From an uncultured Bacilli bacterium (GTDB lineage Bacteria > Bacillota_I > Bacilli_A > RF39 > UBA660), in assembly GCA_949425575.1 (NCBI GenBank), contig CASPVX010000002.1:10309-74308 (forward strand): DNA of 64,000 nt. Reading direction: 5' to 3'. Position 1 is the stretch's first letter. Each line of letters begins with the position of its first letter. This document shows positions 13,975-59,863 of this stretch, one piece after another. The notes below the pieces were generated by a model, which ran no database searches, had not been told where the DNA came from, and saw nothing but the letters and a program-made list of their open reading frames with translations. A program made the position numbers and the translations under genes.

Positions 13975-14949
13975 GTGTTTAAAAAAACTTTAATTACGTT
14001 TCTTTTAATATTTAGTATTCCCATAAATGTATTAGCTTATTCAGATCGTATAATTGCATCAGGCGAAAACATTGGAATTACTTTAAACACAAACGGAGTT
14101 TTAATTGCGGGAACATATAATGTTGGAAATAAAGCTCCAGCAAATGAAGCTGGCCTTAAAAGTGGTGATTTAATTACTAAAATAAATGGTAAACAAGTTT
14201 CTAAAATTGATGAATTAGCTACTGAAATCGATAATGCAAATTCAAAAGAAGTAGAAGTAAATTATACAAGAGATAATAAAAACCATACAACAACATTGAA
14301 ACTTATAAAAGATGAAGATGTTTTAAAAACAGGTCTTTATGTAAAAGATAGTGTAACTGGAATAGGAACACTTACATTTATAGATCCAGAAACAAAATTA
14401 TTTGGTGCTTTAGGTCATGAAATAACTAATACTGTTACCGGAAAAGTATTAGAAATAAAGGACGGAAAGATATTTGATTCGACTGTTACAGGAATAGTCC
14501 CTAGCAAAGATGGTACTGCAGGCGAAAAGAAAGCACAAACTGATTCAGATGATATCAGAGGTTCAGTAGGCGAAAATACATCACAAGGAATATTTGGTAA
14601 ATATTCAAATCCAATAGATCAATCTAAAACATATAAAGTTGCTACTAAAAATGATATAAAGAAAGGCGATGCAAAAATACTAACTGTTTTGAGTGGACAA
14701 ACAGTTTCAGAATATAGTATAGATATTATTGAAATAAGTAATGAAACCTCAAAAACTAAAAATTTTGTATTTAAAATAACAGATGATAATTTACTTAAAA
14801 AAACAGGAGGAATAGTTCAAGGAATGAGTGGTTCTCCAATTATACAAGGTGATTACATCGTTGGAGCTGTTACACATGTCGTAGTTGATGATCCAGAAAA
14901 GGGATATGGAATATTTATCACTAATATGTTAGAAGAGGCAGAAAATTAG
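13975..14949 (+). CDS. spoIVB: SpoIVB sporulation signalling serine peptidase (S55)
   Basis: Signal/TM segment, a PDZ-like block (GLKSGDLITKINGKQV) and the catalytic region GALGHEI..GIVQGMSGSPI. GTG start after a GGAG RBS. Confidence 0.85.
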   Translation: MFKKTLITFLLIFSIPINVLAYSDRIIASGENIGITLNTNGVLIAGTYNVGNKAPANEAGLKSGDLITKINGKQVSKIDELATEIDNANSKEVEVNYTRDNKNHTTTLKLIKDEDVLKTGLYVKDSVTGIGTLTFIDPETKLFGALGHEITNTVTGKVLEIKDGKIFDSTVTGIVPSKDGTAGEKKAQTDSDDIRGSVGENTSQGIFGKYSNPIDQSKTYKVATKNDIKKGDAKILTVLSGQTVSEYSIDIIEISNETSKTKNFVFKITDDNLLKKTGGIVQGMSGSPIIQGDYIVGAVTHVVVDDPEKGYGIFITNMLEEAEN

Positions 14950-18239: not shown

Positions 18240-18860
18240 ATGAAAAAAATAATAAACAAAGCAAAAAATGTACTAAAAATTAATAAAAAGTTATTCGTTT
18301 TTCTATTGGTTTTATCAATTGTAGGTATAGTATCAGGAACTATGCTTTCTCTTATGTTAAATGCTGATGATCAAAAATTGGTAACAGAGTATTTAAATAA
18401 TTTTTTTAATAATACAGATAAAGTAGATACTACAAACACTTTAATTAATACTTTAATTATGACGTTAGGTTTTAGTTTACTAATTTATTTATTAGGTATT
18501 TCAGTAATTGGTTTTGTAGTTATATTATTTATGCTATTTGGAAAGGCATTTGTCTTAGGCTTTTCATTAGGATCAATAATCACTACATATAAATTTAAGG
18601 GGATAGTATATGCTTTAATTTATGTATTCCCACATCATATTATTAATCTTATATTATTTATAATTTTATCAGGTATGGCATTAATTATGTCCTTTAAAAT
18701 AATAAATAATATGACGAAAGAGAAAAAAATAGATTTTAGTGGCATAAAAAAATATAATTATGTGTTATTAATAACTTTGGGTATACTAATTCTCACAACT
18801 TTATATGAGGTTTATGCAATGCCTAATATTCTGAACTTATTTTTAAATATACTAAAATGA
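18240..18860 (+). CDS. spoIIM: Stage II sporulation protein M
   Basis: About 205 aa with 5 TM segments. The architecture (N-terminal basic stretch, then TM, then the ..YVFPHHIINL.. block) is typical of SpoIIM/DUF95. Confidence 0.6.
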   Translation: MKKIINKAKNVLKINKKLFVFLLVLSIVGIVSGTMLSLMLNADDQKLVTEYLNNFFNNTDKVDTTNTLINTLIMTLGFSLLIYLLGISVIGFVVILFMLFGKAFVLGFSLGSIITTYKFKGIVYALIYVFPHHIINLILFIILSGMALIMSFKIINNMTKEKKIDFSGIKKYNYVLLITLGILILTTLYEVYAMPNILNLFLNILK

Positions 18861-21798: not shown

Positions 21799-21812
21799 TT
21801 TACAGTTTTTTC
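21782..21812 (+). terminator. Rho-independent terminator
   Basis: AAACTGTAAA-aaagtag-TTTACAGTTT followed by a T-run; it overlaps the stop codon. Confidence 0.7.
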
Positions 21813-21884
21813 TTTACTTTACATTTTACTTGACATTTTTTGTAAGTGTGTTAAAATTAAAGAGTAGGAGGGTTGTGTACAATC

Positions 21885-22667
21885 ATGGAAAATTTAAATG
21901 ACATATTAAGAGAACTCGGAATTTCAAAAGTTAAATTAGCAAAATGTTTAGGGGTATCTAGACAAATGATATATAATTATTTAGAATTAGATGATTTAAA
22001 TAAATGGCCAAAGGATAAAAAAGTAATTTTACTTAATATTTTAGGTATTAAATCAGCTGATGAACTTAAAAAAATTAAAGTTGATACAGACTATATTATG
22101 GATGTTGAAACAAGAATCAATAGTTTATTTGAAAATACTAATAAAAGTGAGGTTACTGATTCTAATGCAATATTTAATGGTCTAGGAGAAAAACAAAAAG
22201 AATTATTACATAACATTGTAGATGAATTGAAAGAAAGATTAGATGATGATAAAGATGAAATGTCATATAATTCAATGATGTATTTATATCATTATTTACA
22301 AACTATGAAGAGTTCTAAAGAATTAAATTATATTTTAGCTTACGTGTCTAAAGCTGCAGGATTTACTAAACCAAATGAATTTGTTTATGATGATGAAGAA
22401 CAATTTGTATTTGAAAGTATTCAATTCTCAGCTATGAATTTATATAATAGTGGCGCTACTAGCAAAACTAAGATAGCAGAAACTCACAAACGTTTTGTTA
22501 ATCAAATAGAACAAAAAATGGAAGAAAAAATGAGTCGTACATTAGAACTTAATTCAGCTAAAATACAAGCGTTAAAAGAGTTAGGTTATACTGAAATTAA
22601 TGAAGATAATGTTGCTGAAATATTAGAAAAAATAGCTGAAATTCAATCTAGAAAAGTTGGAGAATAA
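21885..22667 (+). CDS. XRE-type HTH domain protein with a long acidic C-terminal region
   Basis: N-terminal LGISKVKLAKCLGVSRQMIYNY helix-turn-helix; the remainder has no recognisable motif. The ATG at 21885 lies downstream of an AGGAGG RBS. Confidence 0.6.
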   Translation: MENLNDILRELGISKVKLAKCLGVSRQMIYNYLELDDLNKWPKDKKVILLNILGIKSADELKKIKVDTDYIMDVETRINSLFENTNKSEVTDSNAIFNGLGEKQKELLHNIVDELKERLDDDKDEMSYNSMMYLYHYLQTMKSSKELNYILAYVSKAAGFTKPNEFVYDDEEQFVFESIQFSAMNLYNSGATSKTKIAETHKRFVNQIEQKMEEKMSRTLELNSAKIQALKELGYTEINEDNVAEILEKIAEIQSRKVGE

Positions 22668-22695
22668 AAACATTATAATATATATTATGTTAACT
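22668..22695. other. dif: Candidate dif site (XerC/XerD chromosome dimer resolution site)
   Basis: AAACATTATAA-TATATA-TTATGTTAACT. The right arm matches 10/11 to both E. coli (TTATGTTAAAT) and B. subtilis (TTATGTAAACT) dif, and the central hexamer is identical to B. subtilis dif. It lies at the point where gene orientation flips. Confidence 0.65.
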
Positions 22696-22714: not shown

Positions 22715-22742
22715 AACTATCTATAATAATAGGTAGTTTTTT
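22715..22742 (+). terminator. Rho-independent terminator
   Basis: AACTATCTA-taataa-TAGGTAGTT followed by TTTTT. Confidence 0.6.
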
Positions 22743-23048
22743 ATTATATAAGGATGGTCCCTATTTGTTTTAAATGAATACTCCCCTAATAGTAGTTTTA
22801 ATTAGTGATAAATTAAATTTATATTTAATTATGATTTATTTTAAATTATTTTTTAATTTATATATCATTAATTATATACAAGTTTATTATATATAGTTTA
22901 TTATCTATAATATATAGGTGTTCTTATTTTTAATTGAGGTGAATAACTACCCATTAATTAATATCCCGATGGCTTAGAATTAACCCCCTATTCCCCTCTT
23001 TTTAGTTATCTATTAGAATAGGGGAAGTCAATTTGAAAAAAATCTGTT

Positions 23049-26065: not shown

Positions 26066-27001
26066 CTACTTTCCATGAGGATGAAAATCTTCATAATTTT
26101 GTTTTAATTGTTTATTTGATATATGTGTATATATTTGTGTTGAAGATATATCACTATGACCTAAAAGTTCTTGAATACTTCTTAAATCTGCCCCATTTTG
26201 AAGGAGATGACTTGCAAAAGAATGCCTTAACACATGAGGTGAAAGTTCCGTTTTTATGCCTTTTTCTAATGCGATTTTTTTAAGTATTTTGAAAAATCCC
26301 TGTCTTGTCATACCTTTTCCATGATTGTTTAGGAAAAGCAAATCGCAAGGGTCTTTTTTAAGTAATTCACTTCTAATATTTAAATAACTAATAAGTGCGT
26401 TTTTAGCATAATCCCCTATTGGAATAATTCTTTCTTTGCTTCCTTTACCAAATACCCTTACATAGTCCATATCTAAATCAATATCATTTATTTTTAAAGA
26501 AATAAGTTCACTAACCCTAAGACCACTACTATACATAAGCTCTAACATAGCTTTATTTCTTACATCAAAATTAGTTGTAACTAAAATATCAAGTAGTTTA
26601 TCTACTTCTTCTATACTTAGTACTTTTGGAAGTCTTTTATCTTGTTTTGGCATTATTATAACCTCAGAGGGATCGTTTTTGACTTTTTTCTCTAAAAGTA
26701 AATATTTATAAAATGCTTTAATAGAACTAATATGTCTTGAAATTGAAGATGAATTCATTTCATTCATTGATAAGTTTTTTATATATTCTTCAATATCTTT
26801 TTTAGTCTTATTTATAAGTAAATTCTCACTATCGGTTTCTTTATTTTTCATAAAAAATGAATAGTAATCTAATAAATCTTCACTATAAGAAACACATGTA
26901 TTTTTGCTATAGTTTTTTTCAGTCATTAAAAATGATAAAAATTCATCAATCATTCTAGTCGCACCATTATTATATTTTTCCTTTACTCTCTTATCTTCCA
27001 T
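26066..27001 (-). CDS. xerD: Tyrosine recombinase XerD
   Basis: RAMLELMYSSGLRVSEL, HVLRHSFASHLL, and LGHSDISSTQIYTH with an ..FHP C-terminus, collinear with B. subtilis RipX. Confidence 0.85.
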   Translation of the reverse strand: MEDKRVKEKYNNGATRMIDEFLSFLMTEKNYSKNTCVSYSEDLLDYYSFFMKNKETDSENLLINKTKKDIEEYIKNLSMNEMNSSSISRHISSIKAFYKYLLLEKKVKNDPSEVIIMPKQDKRLPKVLSIEEVDKLLDILVTTNFDVRNKAMLELMYSSGLRVSELISLKINDIDLDMDYVRVFGKGSKERIIPIGDYAKNALISYLNIRSELLKKDPCDLLFLNNHGKGMTRQGFFKILKKIALEKGIKTELSPHVLRHSFASHLLQNGADLRSIQELLGHSDISSTQIYTHISNKQLKQNYEDFHPHGK

Positions 27002-27080: not shown

Positions 27081-28289
27081 ATGGAACCACTTGCTTTAAA
27101 ATTAAGACCTAAAACACTAGATGATGTATTAGGTCAGGAACATTTAATTGGAAATGGTAAAGTTATTCGTAATCTAGTTAAAAATAAACATTTATTTTCT
27201 ATGATTTTACATGGTCATTGTGGCATTGGAAAAACAACAATTGCTTATGCCATAGTAAATGAATTAGGTTCAGATTATGTATTTTTAAATGCAGCTTTAA
27301 ATAACAAAAGGGATTTTGATGAAGCGATTTATGAGGCTAACTTAAAAGGAAGTTTAATAATTATTATGGATGAATTTCATCGTTTAAACAAAGATAAACA
27401 AGATCTTCTTTTGCCACATTTAGAAAGTGGATTAATTACTTTAATTGGACTTACTACTGCTAATCCATATCATTCTGTTAATCCAGCTATTAGAAGTAGA
27501 TGTCAAATATTTGAATTAAAACCGCTTACTGATGAAAATATTAAAAAAGGATTAAAAAAAGCGACTAAAGAATTAGAAAAAATAAAAATTGATGATGAAT
27601 GTTTAGATTTTATAATAAGGCTTGCTGCTGGAGATTTAAGATATGCTTATAATTTATTAGAAGTAGCTTATTATTCCAGTAAAAACTTTAAAATTACTTT
27701 AGATTCTATAAAAGAAATAAGTAATAAACCAAACTTAGTTTATGATAAAAATGATGATGGATACTATGATTGTATAAGCGCTCTTCAAAAGTCAATTAGA
27801 GGGAGTGATGTAAATGCTTCACTACATTATTTAGCAAGATTAATTGAAGCTGGAGATTTAGATATTATTTATAGAAGACTTTCTGTGATAGCTTACGAGG
27901 ATATTGGGCTTGCTAATCCATCTATTGGTCCTAAAATAGATGCATGTATTAACGCTTGCGAAAGATTAGGTCTTCCAGAAGCCAGGATTCCACTTTCTGT
28001 AGTTGTTGTTGAAATGGCTTTATCTCCTAAATCTAATAGTGCACACATTGCTTTAGATAGTGCTATTAGTGATATTCATAAAGGCAAGGTTGGAAAAGTC
28101 CCAAATCATTTAAAAACAAGCTCGAAAGACTATTTGTATCCGCATAATTTTAAAGGTAGCTATGTTAAACAGCAATATCTTCCAGATGAGCTTGTTAATG
28201 TAAAATACTATATTCCAAGAGAAACAAGTAAATTCGAACAAAGCTTAAAAAGCGTATATGATAAGATAAATGAAAAAAATAGAGAGTGA
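27081..28289 (+). CDS. rarA: Replication-associated recombination protein A (RarA/MgsA AAA+ ATPase)
   Basis: PL..KLRPKTLDDVLGQEHL, a Walker A-like GHCGIGKTT, MDEFHR, and the C-terminal MgsA block ISALQKSIRGSD..A..YLARL. Confidence 0.85.
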   Translation: MEPLALKLRPKTLDDVLGQEHLIGNGKVIRNLVKNKHLFSMILHGHCGIGKTTIAYAIVNELGSDYVFLNAALNNKRDFDEAIYEANLKGSLIIIMDEFHRLNKDKQDLLLPHLESGLITLIGLTTANPYHSVNPAIRSRCQIFELKPLTDENIKKGLKKATKELEKIKIDDECLDFIIRLAAGDLRYAYNLLEVAYYSSKNFKITLDSIKEISNKPNLVYDKNDDGYYDCISALQKSIRGSDVNASLHYLARLIEAGDLDIIYRRLSVIAYEDIGLANPSIGPKIDACINACERLGLPEARIPLSVVVVEMALSPKSNSAHIALDSAISDIHKGKVGKVPNHLKTSSKDYLYPHNFKGSYVKQQYLPDELVNVKYYIPRETSKFEQSLKSVYDKINEKNRE

Positions 28290-43179: not shown

Positions 43180-44280
43180 TTAGGACTCTTTTACGCTATT
43201 TTTCATAATTTCAAGATTATTTTTTAATCTTTCATTATTGGGGTCATAATCTAAAGCTTTTTTTACATAATAAATAGCTTCTGCTTTTCTATCAGTATTA
43301 AAAAGGGAGAGGGATAATATGTCATAGACAGTTCCATCATAGCAAAATGGTTCATTTATATAATTTTTATATGGTTTTTCAAGAGCTAAGGCTATCTCAA
43401 TATTTTTAATTGCTTCTTGATAATTTCCATTTTCATATTCTAATAATGCACTTTCTACAAATGGTTCTCTTAAATAAGGAGTTTCTTTTTTAGCAAGTTC
43501 TAACCACATTTTTGATTCTCTCATTCTATTTAAAGCTTTATATGATCTAGCAATAAAGCGCATAGAAGCAGATCTTTCATCTTTCCATACAGCATTTGGC
43601 ATTTCTAAGTATTTAATAAGTGTATCGATACATTCTTGATATCTTTTATAATACATATATTCTCTACCTAAATAATGCATATTACGATCATCGTCTGGAT
43701 CTTCTTCTACGGACATTTCAAGTAGCGGAAGATATGATCCTCTAGATTTAGAAGAATCGGGATAATGTTTAATAGTAAACTCATCTGTTATTACTGTTAT
43801 TTCATTCCCCTCATATGATAATACTTCATGTACTGGATGAACCCATTTATATCCTTTTTTTACATGGATTTTATCAGCATAAAAGTTTACTGCAGGATTT
43901 CCATATTTATCAAAACTCCAAATATAGTTATATCTAAGTCTAGTTAAAGTCGGATTCCAAATAGACTCTAATTTCTTTCTCCATCCTTTTTCTAAAACTT
44001 CATCAATATCTATACAAAGGCAAATATCTGCATCGTCAGGAACCATATTTAATGATTCATTACGAGCAGTATCAAATCTAAATGGTTTTATATTACCTTT
44101 TTTGACTATTGCTCCTTGTTTTTTTAATTTTTCAATAGTTTTATCTGTTGAACCAGTATCTAATACATAAACTGCATCTGCTTCATTAACACTATTCATC
44201 CACCTATCAACAAATTTTTCCTCATTTTTAGAAATAGCATAAACGTAAACCTTATATTTATTTTTTTCTTTATTAAGCAC
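43180..44280 (-). CDS. Glycosyltransferase (GT2-like N-terminal domain) with C-terminal TPR repeats
   Basis: [14 protein letters not shown]...[10 protein letters not shown] plus a CIDIDE (DxD) motif, with TPR-like helical repeats at the C-terminus. The start overlaps the collagen-like gene's stop by 8 nt. Confidence 0.65.
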
Positions 44281-45502
44281 TTATTTTAGTTACAGTTAAA
44301 CTTGCGTTTGTTCCAGAGCCTAAAGTAACACCAACGGCTATTAAGGCACTAAGAGCCATATCTATGTTTGTTCCTGCTGGTAAGGTTACGATTACACTGC
44401 CACTATAAATAGATTCTACACCAACAGCTAATAATCTAGAAATAACTGCCCCTGGTATATTTGTTCCATTTTGTCTAATAGCTAAAGTAAGTGTTGTTCC
44501 AATAGCTGCTGAAGCATTTAAATACCAATCAATTTTATAAGTCCCTGCTTGAGTAAGGGTTAATGTGTTAGCAGTGGCTGTTGTAATGTTATTTTCAGGC
44601 ATAACAGTTGGTAGTGCTACTTGACTAGTCCCACCCAAAGTTAAATTGATTGTTTGCGGAGCATCACTATATCTACCGCCATAGGCTGCCAAACCTGCAT
44701 TAGGTCCTGTTGGTCCTGTAGCCCCAGTTGGACCGGTTAATCCTTGTATCCCTGATGCACCGGTTGGTCCAGTCGGACCAGTAGGACCTTGAATACCTTG
44801 TGGACCTGTTGGGCCAATTGTTCCAGGAATCCCTTGTATTCCTTGTGGACCAGTAGCTCCAGTAGGCCCTGTCGCACCAATTTCACCAGTTAAACCTTGA
44901 GGTCCAATTGGGCCAGTTGGTCCAGTGACTCCTTGCAATCCCTGAGGCCCTGTCGCACCTGTAGGTCCTGGTACTGTACTAGCCGCACCTGTAGCACCGG
45001 TTGGTCCAGTGGCACCAGTAGGACCTGTTACACCTGCAGCTCCAGTACTACCAGTTGCCCCTGTTGGCCCCTGAATACCTTGTGGGCCAGTTGCGCCAAT
45101 TGGTCCAGTCGGACCGATTGTTCCGGGAATCCCTTGTGTTCCTTGCGGACCAGTAGCTCCAGTAGGGCCTGTTGGTCCTATAGGCCCTGTAGGACCTTGA
45201 ATACCTTGTGGACCTGTGGCTCCCTGGAGTCCTTGCAAACCCCTTGGCCCTTGTGCTCCTGTAGCTCCTGTTGCACCTCTTGGAATCGAAAACTCTAAAA
45301 TAGCATTTTGATTATCTCCAATATTTACAACACTCGCATTTGTTCCAGGTTCTGTAGTATTAGTATCTGCTATAGTGATAGTCGCTGGACCTGCAGGACC
45401 TGTTGGCCCAGTTGGTCCAATTGCAGGACCACAACAGCAAGAAACCGTTTTACATTTTTGATCACGAGCAATTTTTTGCATTGCTTTTTCGTAATTATTC
45501 AT
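44273..45502 (-). CDS. BclA-like collagen triple-helix-repeat spore-surface protein with a C-terminal C1q/TNF-like domain
   Basis: About 63 G-X-Y triplets, mostly [12 protein letters not shown]. The C-terminal ~140 aa is a beta-rich, Thr/Ala/Gly-rich domain as in BclA. The ATG at 45502 lies 6 nt after a GGAGG RBS. Confidence 0.85.
44699..45277 (-). repeat. Collagen-like GXY coding repeat tract, a locally GC-rich island
   Basis: 33 + 30 uninterrupted GXY triplets separated by STVP. The block ATGPQG(I/T)[12 protein letters not shown] occurs twice. Confidence 0.9.
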
Positions 45503-45563
45503 TTCTACCTCCATTCTAATAAATTATATGCAGGAAGTAGATTTACAGCAAAAACAAAAGCAC

Positions 45564-54301: not shown

Positions 54302-56121
<1,820 letters not shown>

Positions 56122-59631: not shown

Positions 59632-59806
59632 AAAAAAAGTCCAAAAGAGAAACCGTAACGATCAAAAACCTGATCTCCCAGGTGGGCATCACATTACAAA
59701 TTTTAGGATTCTCTATTAATAATAGAGCATTCAACACCATTTGTAAATTAGACTCCCAATCGTTATACTTAGTAGGTTTTTCAGAATTGGTATTCTTCTT
59801 TTAGAC
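59632..59806 (-). ncRNA. Candidate stand-alone rod-shaped sRNA (~175 nt), possibly 6S-like
   Basis: An extended -10 promoter (TGGTATAAT, 59813-59821) places the TSS near 59806. The first 18 nt (GTCTAAAAGAAGAATACC) pair with GGTTTCTCTTTTGGAC at the 3' end, which is directly followed by T7. Internal helices are AAAAACCT/AGGTTTTT, TTACAAAT/ATTTGTAA and an apical CTCTATTA/TAATAGAG. There is no ORF. Confidence 0.5.
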
Positions 59807-59863
59807 AATTATATTATACCACAAATTCACTAAAAATATAACTGCTTTACACTAGTTTTTAAC

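Follow-up and report, generated by a model that had tools for sequence, protein, structure and literature searches.

A probable chromosomal dif site in an uncultured low-GC Bacilli bacterium is a natural recombination target of filamentous phages that lack a recombinase gene

Our analysis showed that a dif-like site of an uncultured Bacilli bacterium is used in nature for recombination by recombinase-less filamentous phages. The site is the 28-mer AAACATTATAATATATATTATGTTAACT, found at positions 22668-22695 on the + strand of the 64-kb window (the whole stretch of DNA analysed here), and it is very probably the chromosomal dif of this organism, lying where the replichores converge in the terminus region of a genome of about 25% G+C and at least 1.27 Mb. 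With the phage insertions, what had been an argument from sequence similarity becomes evidence of recombination at the site. A preliminary description of this DNA had already proposed the 28-mer as a candidate dif, and that reading is now supported by a core sequence shared across species, by phages inserted in the site and by a gene order common to related genomes.

Direct reading of the + strand bears out the Xer-type 11-6-11 layout reported in the preliminary description, AAACATTATAA-TATATA-TTATGTTAACT. The left arm (22668-22678), which corresponds by homology to the XerC/CodV side, has a canonical inner TATAA; the central region (22679-22684) is identical to that of B. subtilis dif; and the right arm (22685-22695) lies, again by homology, on the XerD/RipX side. 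Six of 11 positions in the arms are complementary, so that the site is partly palindromic around its 6-bp central region. When recounted, the match to B. subtilis dif came to the same 21/28 as before, made up of 6/6 in the central region, 10/11 in the right arm and 5/11 in the left, and the match to E. coli dif again came to 19/28, with 10/11 in the right arm. On both strands of the window the 28-mer is the best match to B. subtilis dif. Its uniqueness, proposed earlier as a check, holds within the window, where there is one copy, and the 28-mer is also single-copy in every related contig examined. The 22-nt core formed by the inner left arm, central region and right arm (TATAATATATATTATGTTAACT) likewise has a single match in the window with up to three mismatches allowed, for a chance expectation of 0.07 in dinucleotide-preserving shuffles. 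Neither a second dif-like site nor a canonical left arm with a partner occurs in the 64 kb.

A scan of this core against GTDB species representatives recovered at least 120 stretches with one match in each. The core is thus identical in at least 120 species, and the right arm TTATGTTAACT is unchanged in all of these representatives as well as in the phage attP described below; the alignment with dif sites of related genomes that had been suggested earlier therefore gives an identical core, with an outer left arm that differs from the consensus. The matches listed are mostly low-GC Bacilli, Izemoplasmatales and metagenome-assembled genomes labelled Mollicutes, and also include cultured Bacillus, Metabacillus and Heyndrickxia and several other phyla. 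Sixty-five of the loci among the matches listed had at least 1.5 kb on either side and were oriented by the site to compare their 3-kb flanks. GC skew was higher to the left of the core than to the right in 63 of these 65 loci, with a sign pattern of +/- in 51 and -/+ in 2. The shared core and this drop in skew, among the matches listed, show the core to be the widespread Firmicutes-type dif, which generally marks convergence points. Firmicutes-type dif has previously been described as conserved across phyla and located near skew shift points (Kono et al., 2011; PMC3025954).

The evidence for recombination at the site came from looking up the proteins of the window in public assemblies, which revealed two alleles within the same species. 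The empty allele is that of the window (also loci L002, L007, L009 and others), and the occupied allele (L008, L017 and L149) carries between the helix-turn-helix (HTH) gene that precedes dif and a gene for a 204-aa protein a 6236-bp element that is absent from the window. The complete prophage lies at 12406-18697 of L008 and is also present in L017 and L149, with attL in L011 and L012 and attR in L001, L020 and L024; the samples that contain it are SRR29764151, SRR29764153, SRR29764162 and SRR29764163. Written as left arm/central region/right arm, the empty site is AAACATTATAA/TATATA/TTATGTTAACT, attL is AAACATTATAA/TATATC/TTATGTTAACT and attR is AACCGTCGCGA/TATATA/TTATGTTAACT. The inferred attP would be AACCGTCGCGA-TATATC-TTATGTTAACT-TCTTAA, with AACCGTCGCGATATATCTTATGTTAACTTCTTAAATTT as its predicted junction. 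It is identical to dif at 22 of 23 bp over the central region, the right arm and six flanking bases; its XerD arm is perfect, and its left arm matches the host arm at 5/11 positions and the consensus at 2/11 by our own count. Since the phage C at central position 6 is found in attL and the host A in attR, the crossover must lie within 6 bp where the left arm meets the central region, from position 11 of the arm to position 5/6 of the centre. These junctions exclude an exchange on the right-arm side alone, and they fit a top-strand exchange at the border of the left arm and the central region, after which replication or another exchange would resolve the junction.

The element carries genes for a rolling-circle Rep (PF23343, REP_ORF2-G2P; phrog_3419, E = 1.6e-23), for a P-loop protein of Zot-like type (phrog_197), for a coat-like protein of 60 aa (phrog_2186) and for an HTH repressor that resembles RstR, together with several small or membrane-type ORFs. 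No recombinase or integrase gene was found among the genes called in the 6236 bp when these were compared with Pfam, NCBIfam and/or PHROGs. Because an element without a recombinase, bearing a dif-like attP, is inserted in dif, we infer that its integration is carried out by the Xer recombinases of the host. The nearest deposited relatives of the Rep protein belong to small faecal Inoviridae and to Ralstonia inoviruses. A second phage occupies the same dif position within this species, in another sample (L152, 4164-7337; ENA ERZ14650979 NODE_1989); its Rep and Zot-like proteins are 66% and 60% identical to those of the first, and its attL cannot be told apart from dif. Beside the dif of another species there is a third relative (L128, 247-5143), and related Rep or Zot-like genes occur within a few kb of dif in loci of other species and on metagenome contigs (L128, L056, L124, L129 and L167). 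The exact attP, which would mark a free form of the phage, was absent from the viral and metagenome contigs searched, and IMG/VR held no close relatives of the Rep or Zot-like proteins. A dif-like site was also absent from three Rep-matching genomes, namely the circular inoviruses bajarodino virus 41 and 17 and one unverified linear phage scaffold.

This combination of features is the signature of integrative mobile elements exploiting Xer (IMEX; for a review see PMC5357621). The same reasoning is reported to have identified dif in Legionellales (PMC9765430). Like the VGJphi-type phages of Vibrio (PMC5357621), the prophage described here is a small filamentous genome without a recombinase, has a dif-like attP and an RstR-like repressor, and is inserted in dif with the central mismatch on the XerD side and the crossover on the left-arm side. 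The IMEX of that review have Proteobacteria as hosts, whereas the host here is a low-GC member of the Bacilli. The attP also differs from those of TLCphi and the GGI, whose XerD arms are degenerate: it is their mirror image, with a degenerate left arm and a perfect XerD arm.

Gene orientation converges exactly at the site. Among ORFs of at least 100 aa, with antisense overlaps excluded, all 23 to the left of the site (89-22667) are on the + strand, and 30 of the 31 to its right (23049-54123) are on the - strand, the only exception being rarA (27081-28289, +), as the ORF list and Pfam annotations show; the convergent pattern noted in the preliminary description, uniformly + on the left and - on the right as far as 54.1 kb save for rarA, thus stands on both sides. 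A related strain has the identical 28-mer on a contig of 1,267,149 bp (ENA ERZ28758397 contig_11845), at about 811 kb. A replication terminus at this point is strongly suggested by three things: co-oriented genes run strictly toward the site over more than 22 kb on one side and 31 kb on the other, its sequence is that of a dif, and in other genomes it behaves as one.

Base composition within the window follows the genes. GC skew of the + strand is about +0.2 up to 22-23 kb and about -0.2 beyond, and coding-strand skew is 0.23 in the left + genes, 0.21 in the right - genes and 0.21 in five + genes on the right, which would lie on the lagging strand; because these last genes share the same coding-strand skew, the flip adds nothing to what gene orientation already tells us. 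The two putative leading-strand blocks have equal total coding-strand skew but differ strongly in GC3 skew (0.24 on the left vs 0.04 on the right); the left one, in which genes for glycosyltransferases and the cell envelope abound, may differ in origin or codon usage. No replication-specific skew could be extracted separately from coding skew in the window, GC3 and AT3 being inconsistent between the two arms, and intergenic skew is probably dominated by G-rich ribosome-binding sites. KOPS-like G-rich octamers are nearly missing from the window (GGGNAGGG once, GAGAAGGG not at all). The word GAAGAAG points toward the site, with counts of 3:0 to its left and 3:24 to its right, but as a purine-rich word of the coding strand it is confounded. 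The polarity of translocase-orienting octamers, put forward in the preliminary description as a further check, was followed within the window, where the known motifs are absent or confounded and yield no usable polarity.

Several other features of the window deserve mention. The strict minus-strand block ends at 54.1-54.4 kb, where a tRNA gene is located (54305-54375, -), and a 6S RNA gene follows at 59634-59810 (-, 63.7 bits). A peak in G+C content (0.34-0.39 vs 0.25) at 44273-45514 (-) corresponds to a gene for a collagen-triple-helix-repeat protein with a BclA C-terminal domain, adjoined by a TPR/glycosyltransferase gene (43180-44280). Together with genes for SpoIIM (18240-18860) and a SpoIVB-type peptidase (13975-14949), the collagen/BclA gene hints at a spore-former with a small genome.

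The XerD-type recombinase that the preliminary description had placed 3.4 kb from the site is encoded at 26066-27001 (-) and passes the cut-off of the NCBIfam XerD equivalog (TIGR02225, 355.7 bits vs 329.6); it falls below those of the XerC model (331.1 vs 335.15) and the XerS model (128.5 vs 267), and carries the Pfam Phage_integrase and SAM-like N domains. It is the one Xer paralogue in the 64-kb window, where neither an XerC/CodV-type partner nor an FtsK/SpoIIIE gene was found. The gene order mnmA-HTH-dif...ZIP-XerD-rarA-holA is common to related species, and the XerD gene lies about 2-4 kb from dif in several of them (L048, L051, L054, L058 and L066). By homology with CodV/RipX-dif of B. 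subtilis and XerCD-dif of E. coli, the XerD-type enzyme would bind the right arm TTATGTTAACT, and the weaker left arm AAACATTATAA would be bound by a partner protomer. This would be an XerC/CodV-type paralogue whose gene lies beyond the window; that the XerD-type enzyme itself supplies both protomers is less likely. Two sister sites would then come together in a synapse, and strand exchanges at either border of TATATA, one after the other, would convert the chromosome dimer to monomers. Binding, catalysis, the order of strand exchange, any dependence on FtsK/SpoIIIE and the role in dimer resolution are all predicted here by analogy with these two systems.

The resemblance to the B. subtilis system (dif with CodV (XerC) and RipX (XerD)) extends to the 28-bp 11-6-11 site, the central TATATA, the right arm at 10/11, the probable location of dif where the replichores converge and the presence of an XerD-type enzyme. 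The differences lie in the left arm (5/11, with its outer half off the Firmicutes consensus), in the XerD gene, which is 3.4 kb from dif in a linkage kept in relatives, and in the partner recombinase, for which there is no gene in the window. With E. coli dif and XerCD/FtsK the site shares its architecture and the right arm at 10/11, but overall identity is 19/28 and KOPS-like octamers are wanting in this A+T-rich window, as the counts given above show. Linkage between the recombinase gene and its site, at 3.4 kb in this case, is also a feature of XerS/difSL and XerH/difH. Membership of the single-recombinase XerS/difSL class was nevertheless rejected, since the XerS score is below its cut-off and the site is a 28-bp XerCD-type dif rather than a 31-bp difSL.

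The left arm is the unusual part of the site. Its outer portion, AAACAT, departs from the ACTTCC consensus of the 119 other dif sites among the matches listed, at positions that are conserved in 104-112 of those 119; position 5, for example, is C in 112 of them, and a C at position 4 and an A at position 5 each occur in just one. The closest relatives have AAATCC, AATTCC or TTATCC as outer left arms, each followed by TATAA. A weak XerC-side arm is normal in dif-type sites. The arm AAACATTATAA is 100% conserved across the strains of the species examined, and in strain L150 the 28-mer is identical even though the flanks have diverged.

Two further alleles were encountered in this region. A 3.2-kb contig (L015, 3038-3065, -) has, after the HTH gene of the same species, an inverted dif with a canonical left arm and the central region TTGATA; its right flank has no match in the window or the other loci, and the best metagenome matches are about 70% identical. 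This TTGATA-type variant, ACTTCCTATAATTGATATTATGTTAACT, is common in gut and rumen metagenomes and in related gut bacteria (L160-L255). Since 13 of 54 GTDB loci and 12 of 69 metagenome contigs also have dif in the opposite orientation to the HTH gene, L015 is either ordinary variation, as a recombinant terminus allele, or a chimeric assembly. The other allele (L010, 11740-12707; JGI 3300006155) has an HTH gene that diverges after about 45 codons and is cut to 100 aa, with unrelated DNA downstream and, by eye, the 3' end of what looks like a tRNA gene at the end of the contig.

The HTH gene itself (21885-22667, +) encodes an XRE-type protein of 260 aa from an ATG at 21885, in an ORF that opens at 21873. 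It is preceded by a promoter (21830-21857, +; TTGACA, 16 nt, TAAAAT, with an upstream TG) that matches the consensus at 11 of 12 positions, and tandem TTTAC repeats in the promoter region (21800-21860) run into the -35 element, a layout kept across species. The TTTAC motif is found neither near dif nor enriched in the window, which points to autoregulation. The family has more than 4900 homologues, annotated just as HTH regulators or hypothetical proteins. In the homologues we placed relative to dif (44-100% identity), the 3' end of the gene faces the site in all 54 GTDB loci and in all 69 metagenome contigs that carry the gene, the latter with a TTGATA-type dif. The site lies 6-1595 nt downstream of the gene in the 54 GTDB loci (median about 330), and in the closest species it is inside the 3' untranslated region. 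Three family members chosen without reference to dif all had a dif, one of them with a different central region, 430-819 nt downstream. The genes on the far side of dif vary between loci, and no other neighbour is linked to dif as tightly as this family.

Only an N-terminal XRE-type HTH is recognisable in the 260-aa protein. Its AlphaFold model is of high confidence (pLDDT 84.9) and all-helical, with the HTH followed by long helices; there was no sequence match in the PDB and no Foldseek match at E <= 1e-3, the weak structural analogues being confined to the N-terminal HTH, which leaves the C-terminal two-thirds without a fold relative. The protein also has weak matches to phage repressor families. 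Genes linked to the sites at which their products act have precedents in xerS-difSL, xerH-difH, tus-TerB and rtp-TerI; the terminator protein genes tus and rtp adjoin TerB and TerI/II, respectively. By this token, and with its linkage to dif as the evidence, the HTH protein may serve dif or the terminus specifically in this clade, as an accessory or activator of Xer or by arresting forks or organising the terminus, and not simply be a regulator that happens to lie nearby, although we consider this rather unlikely. The likeness to tus and rtp, a gene of DNA-binding (HTH) type beside a terminus landmark, is positional only: neither in sequence nor in fold was the protein found to resemble Tus or RTP, and no repeated Ter-like motif was seen near dif.

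As the preliminary description had noted, the first base of the site directly follows a stop codon, which is the TAA of the HTH gene (22665-22667). It had further placed the site upstream of a terminator, and thus in transcribed DNA. RNA folding does predict a terminator-like hairpin with a 10-bp stem (AACTATCTAT/ATAGGTAGTT) and a T-run downstream of dif (22715-22745, +), but a consensus terminator scanner made no call on it, as it has fewer than three G-C pairs. The order stop codon, dif, hairpin and T-run can also be seen, by eye, around dif in the five closest relatives and in strain L150 (L047, L051, L054, L057, L112 and L150). Lying between a stop codon and a terminator-like hairpin, dif is probably transcribed.

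Other explanations of the site can be weighed against these data. In A+T-rich DNA partial matches are plentiful (15 sites in the window reach 18/28 to B. subtilis dif) and skew within the window is inseparable from gene orientation, so that the 28-mer might be a chance A+T-rich near-palindrome of a 25% G+C genome that happens to fall where two operon blocks meet locally, and not at the terminus. This idea is effectively refuted by the low chance expectation of the 22-mer even at three mismatches, by the conservation of the core across species and strains, by the precise insertion of phages in the site and by the length of the opposed gene blocks that converge on it. A role confined to that of a dif-mimicking phage attB, used through the phage Rep (an HUH-type protein) or another phage function and without any part in dimer resolution, is extremely unlikely. 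It would account for the fact that the direct evidence of recombination consists of phage junctions and that the element encodes such a Rep, but not for the presence of the core in at least 120 species, mostly without a prophage nearby and at skew switches, nor for the unchanged site in strains where it is empty. Moreover, what is duplicated corresponds exactly to the central region plus the XerD arm plus 6 further bp, a pattern known from other elements that exploit Xer (PMC5357621), and an XerD equivalog is genetically linked to the site.

We also rejected the possibility that the site is a secondary or hybrid dif-like remnant of an older element that included the HTH gene, the true dif lying elsewhere, and consider it very unlikely. 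The atypical outer left arm, the weak resemblance of the HTH protein to phage repressors and the canonical left arm of the oppositely oriented site after the same gene in L015 could all be taken in its favour. Against this, the HTH gene is conserved next to dif on the chromosome in the 54 GTDB loci and 69 metagenome contigs, and hence no cargo, and the window has neither a second dif-like site nor a canonical left arm with a partner. The five closest species share the layout in which dif follows the stop codon, with left arms of their own (AAATCC, AATTCC and TTATCC, plus TATAA), and the frequency of inverted dif sites noted above makes L015 ordinary variation or a chimeric assembly.

The identification of the 28-mer as dif is, as such, routine annotation and ordinary biology. 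It provides a probable anchor for the terminus in an uncultured genome of about 1.27 Mb and helps to orient the replichores in metagenome-assembled genomes of this group. The tightly linked HTH family offers a testable candidate for a terminus- or Xer-associated factor in bacteria without known ones. The empty and occupied alleles are evidence from nature, at the level of single bases, for the exploitation of Xer by filamentous phages in a low-GC lineage of Bacilli. In the literature that we searched, this strategy of dif-integrating phages was documented only for Proteobacteria, and it is extended here to this group of hosts. An attP with a perfect XerD arm and an unrecognisable XerC arm raises the question of how the first strand exchange is licensed.
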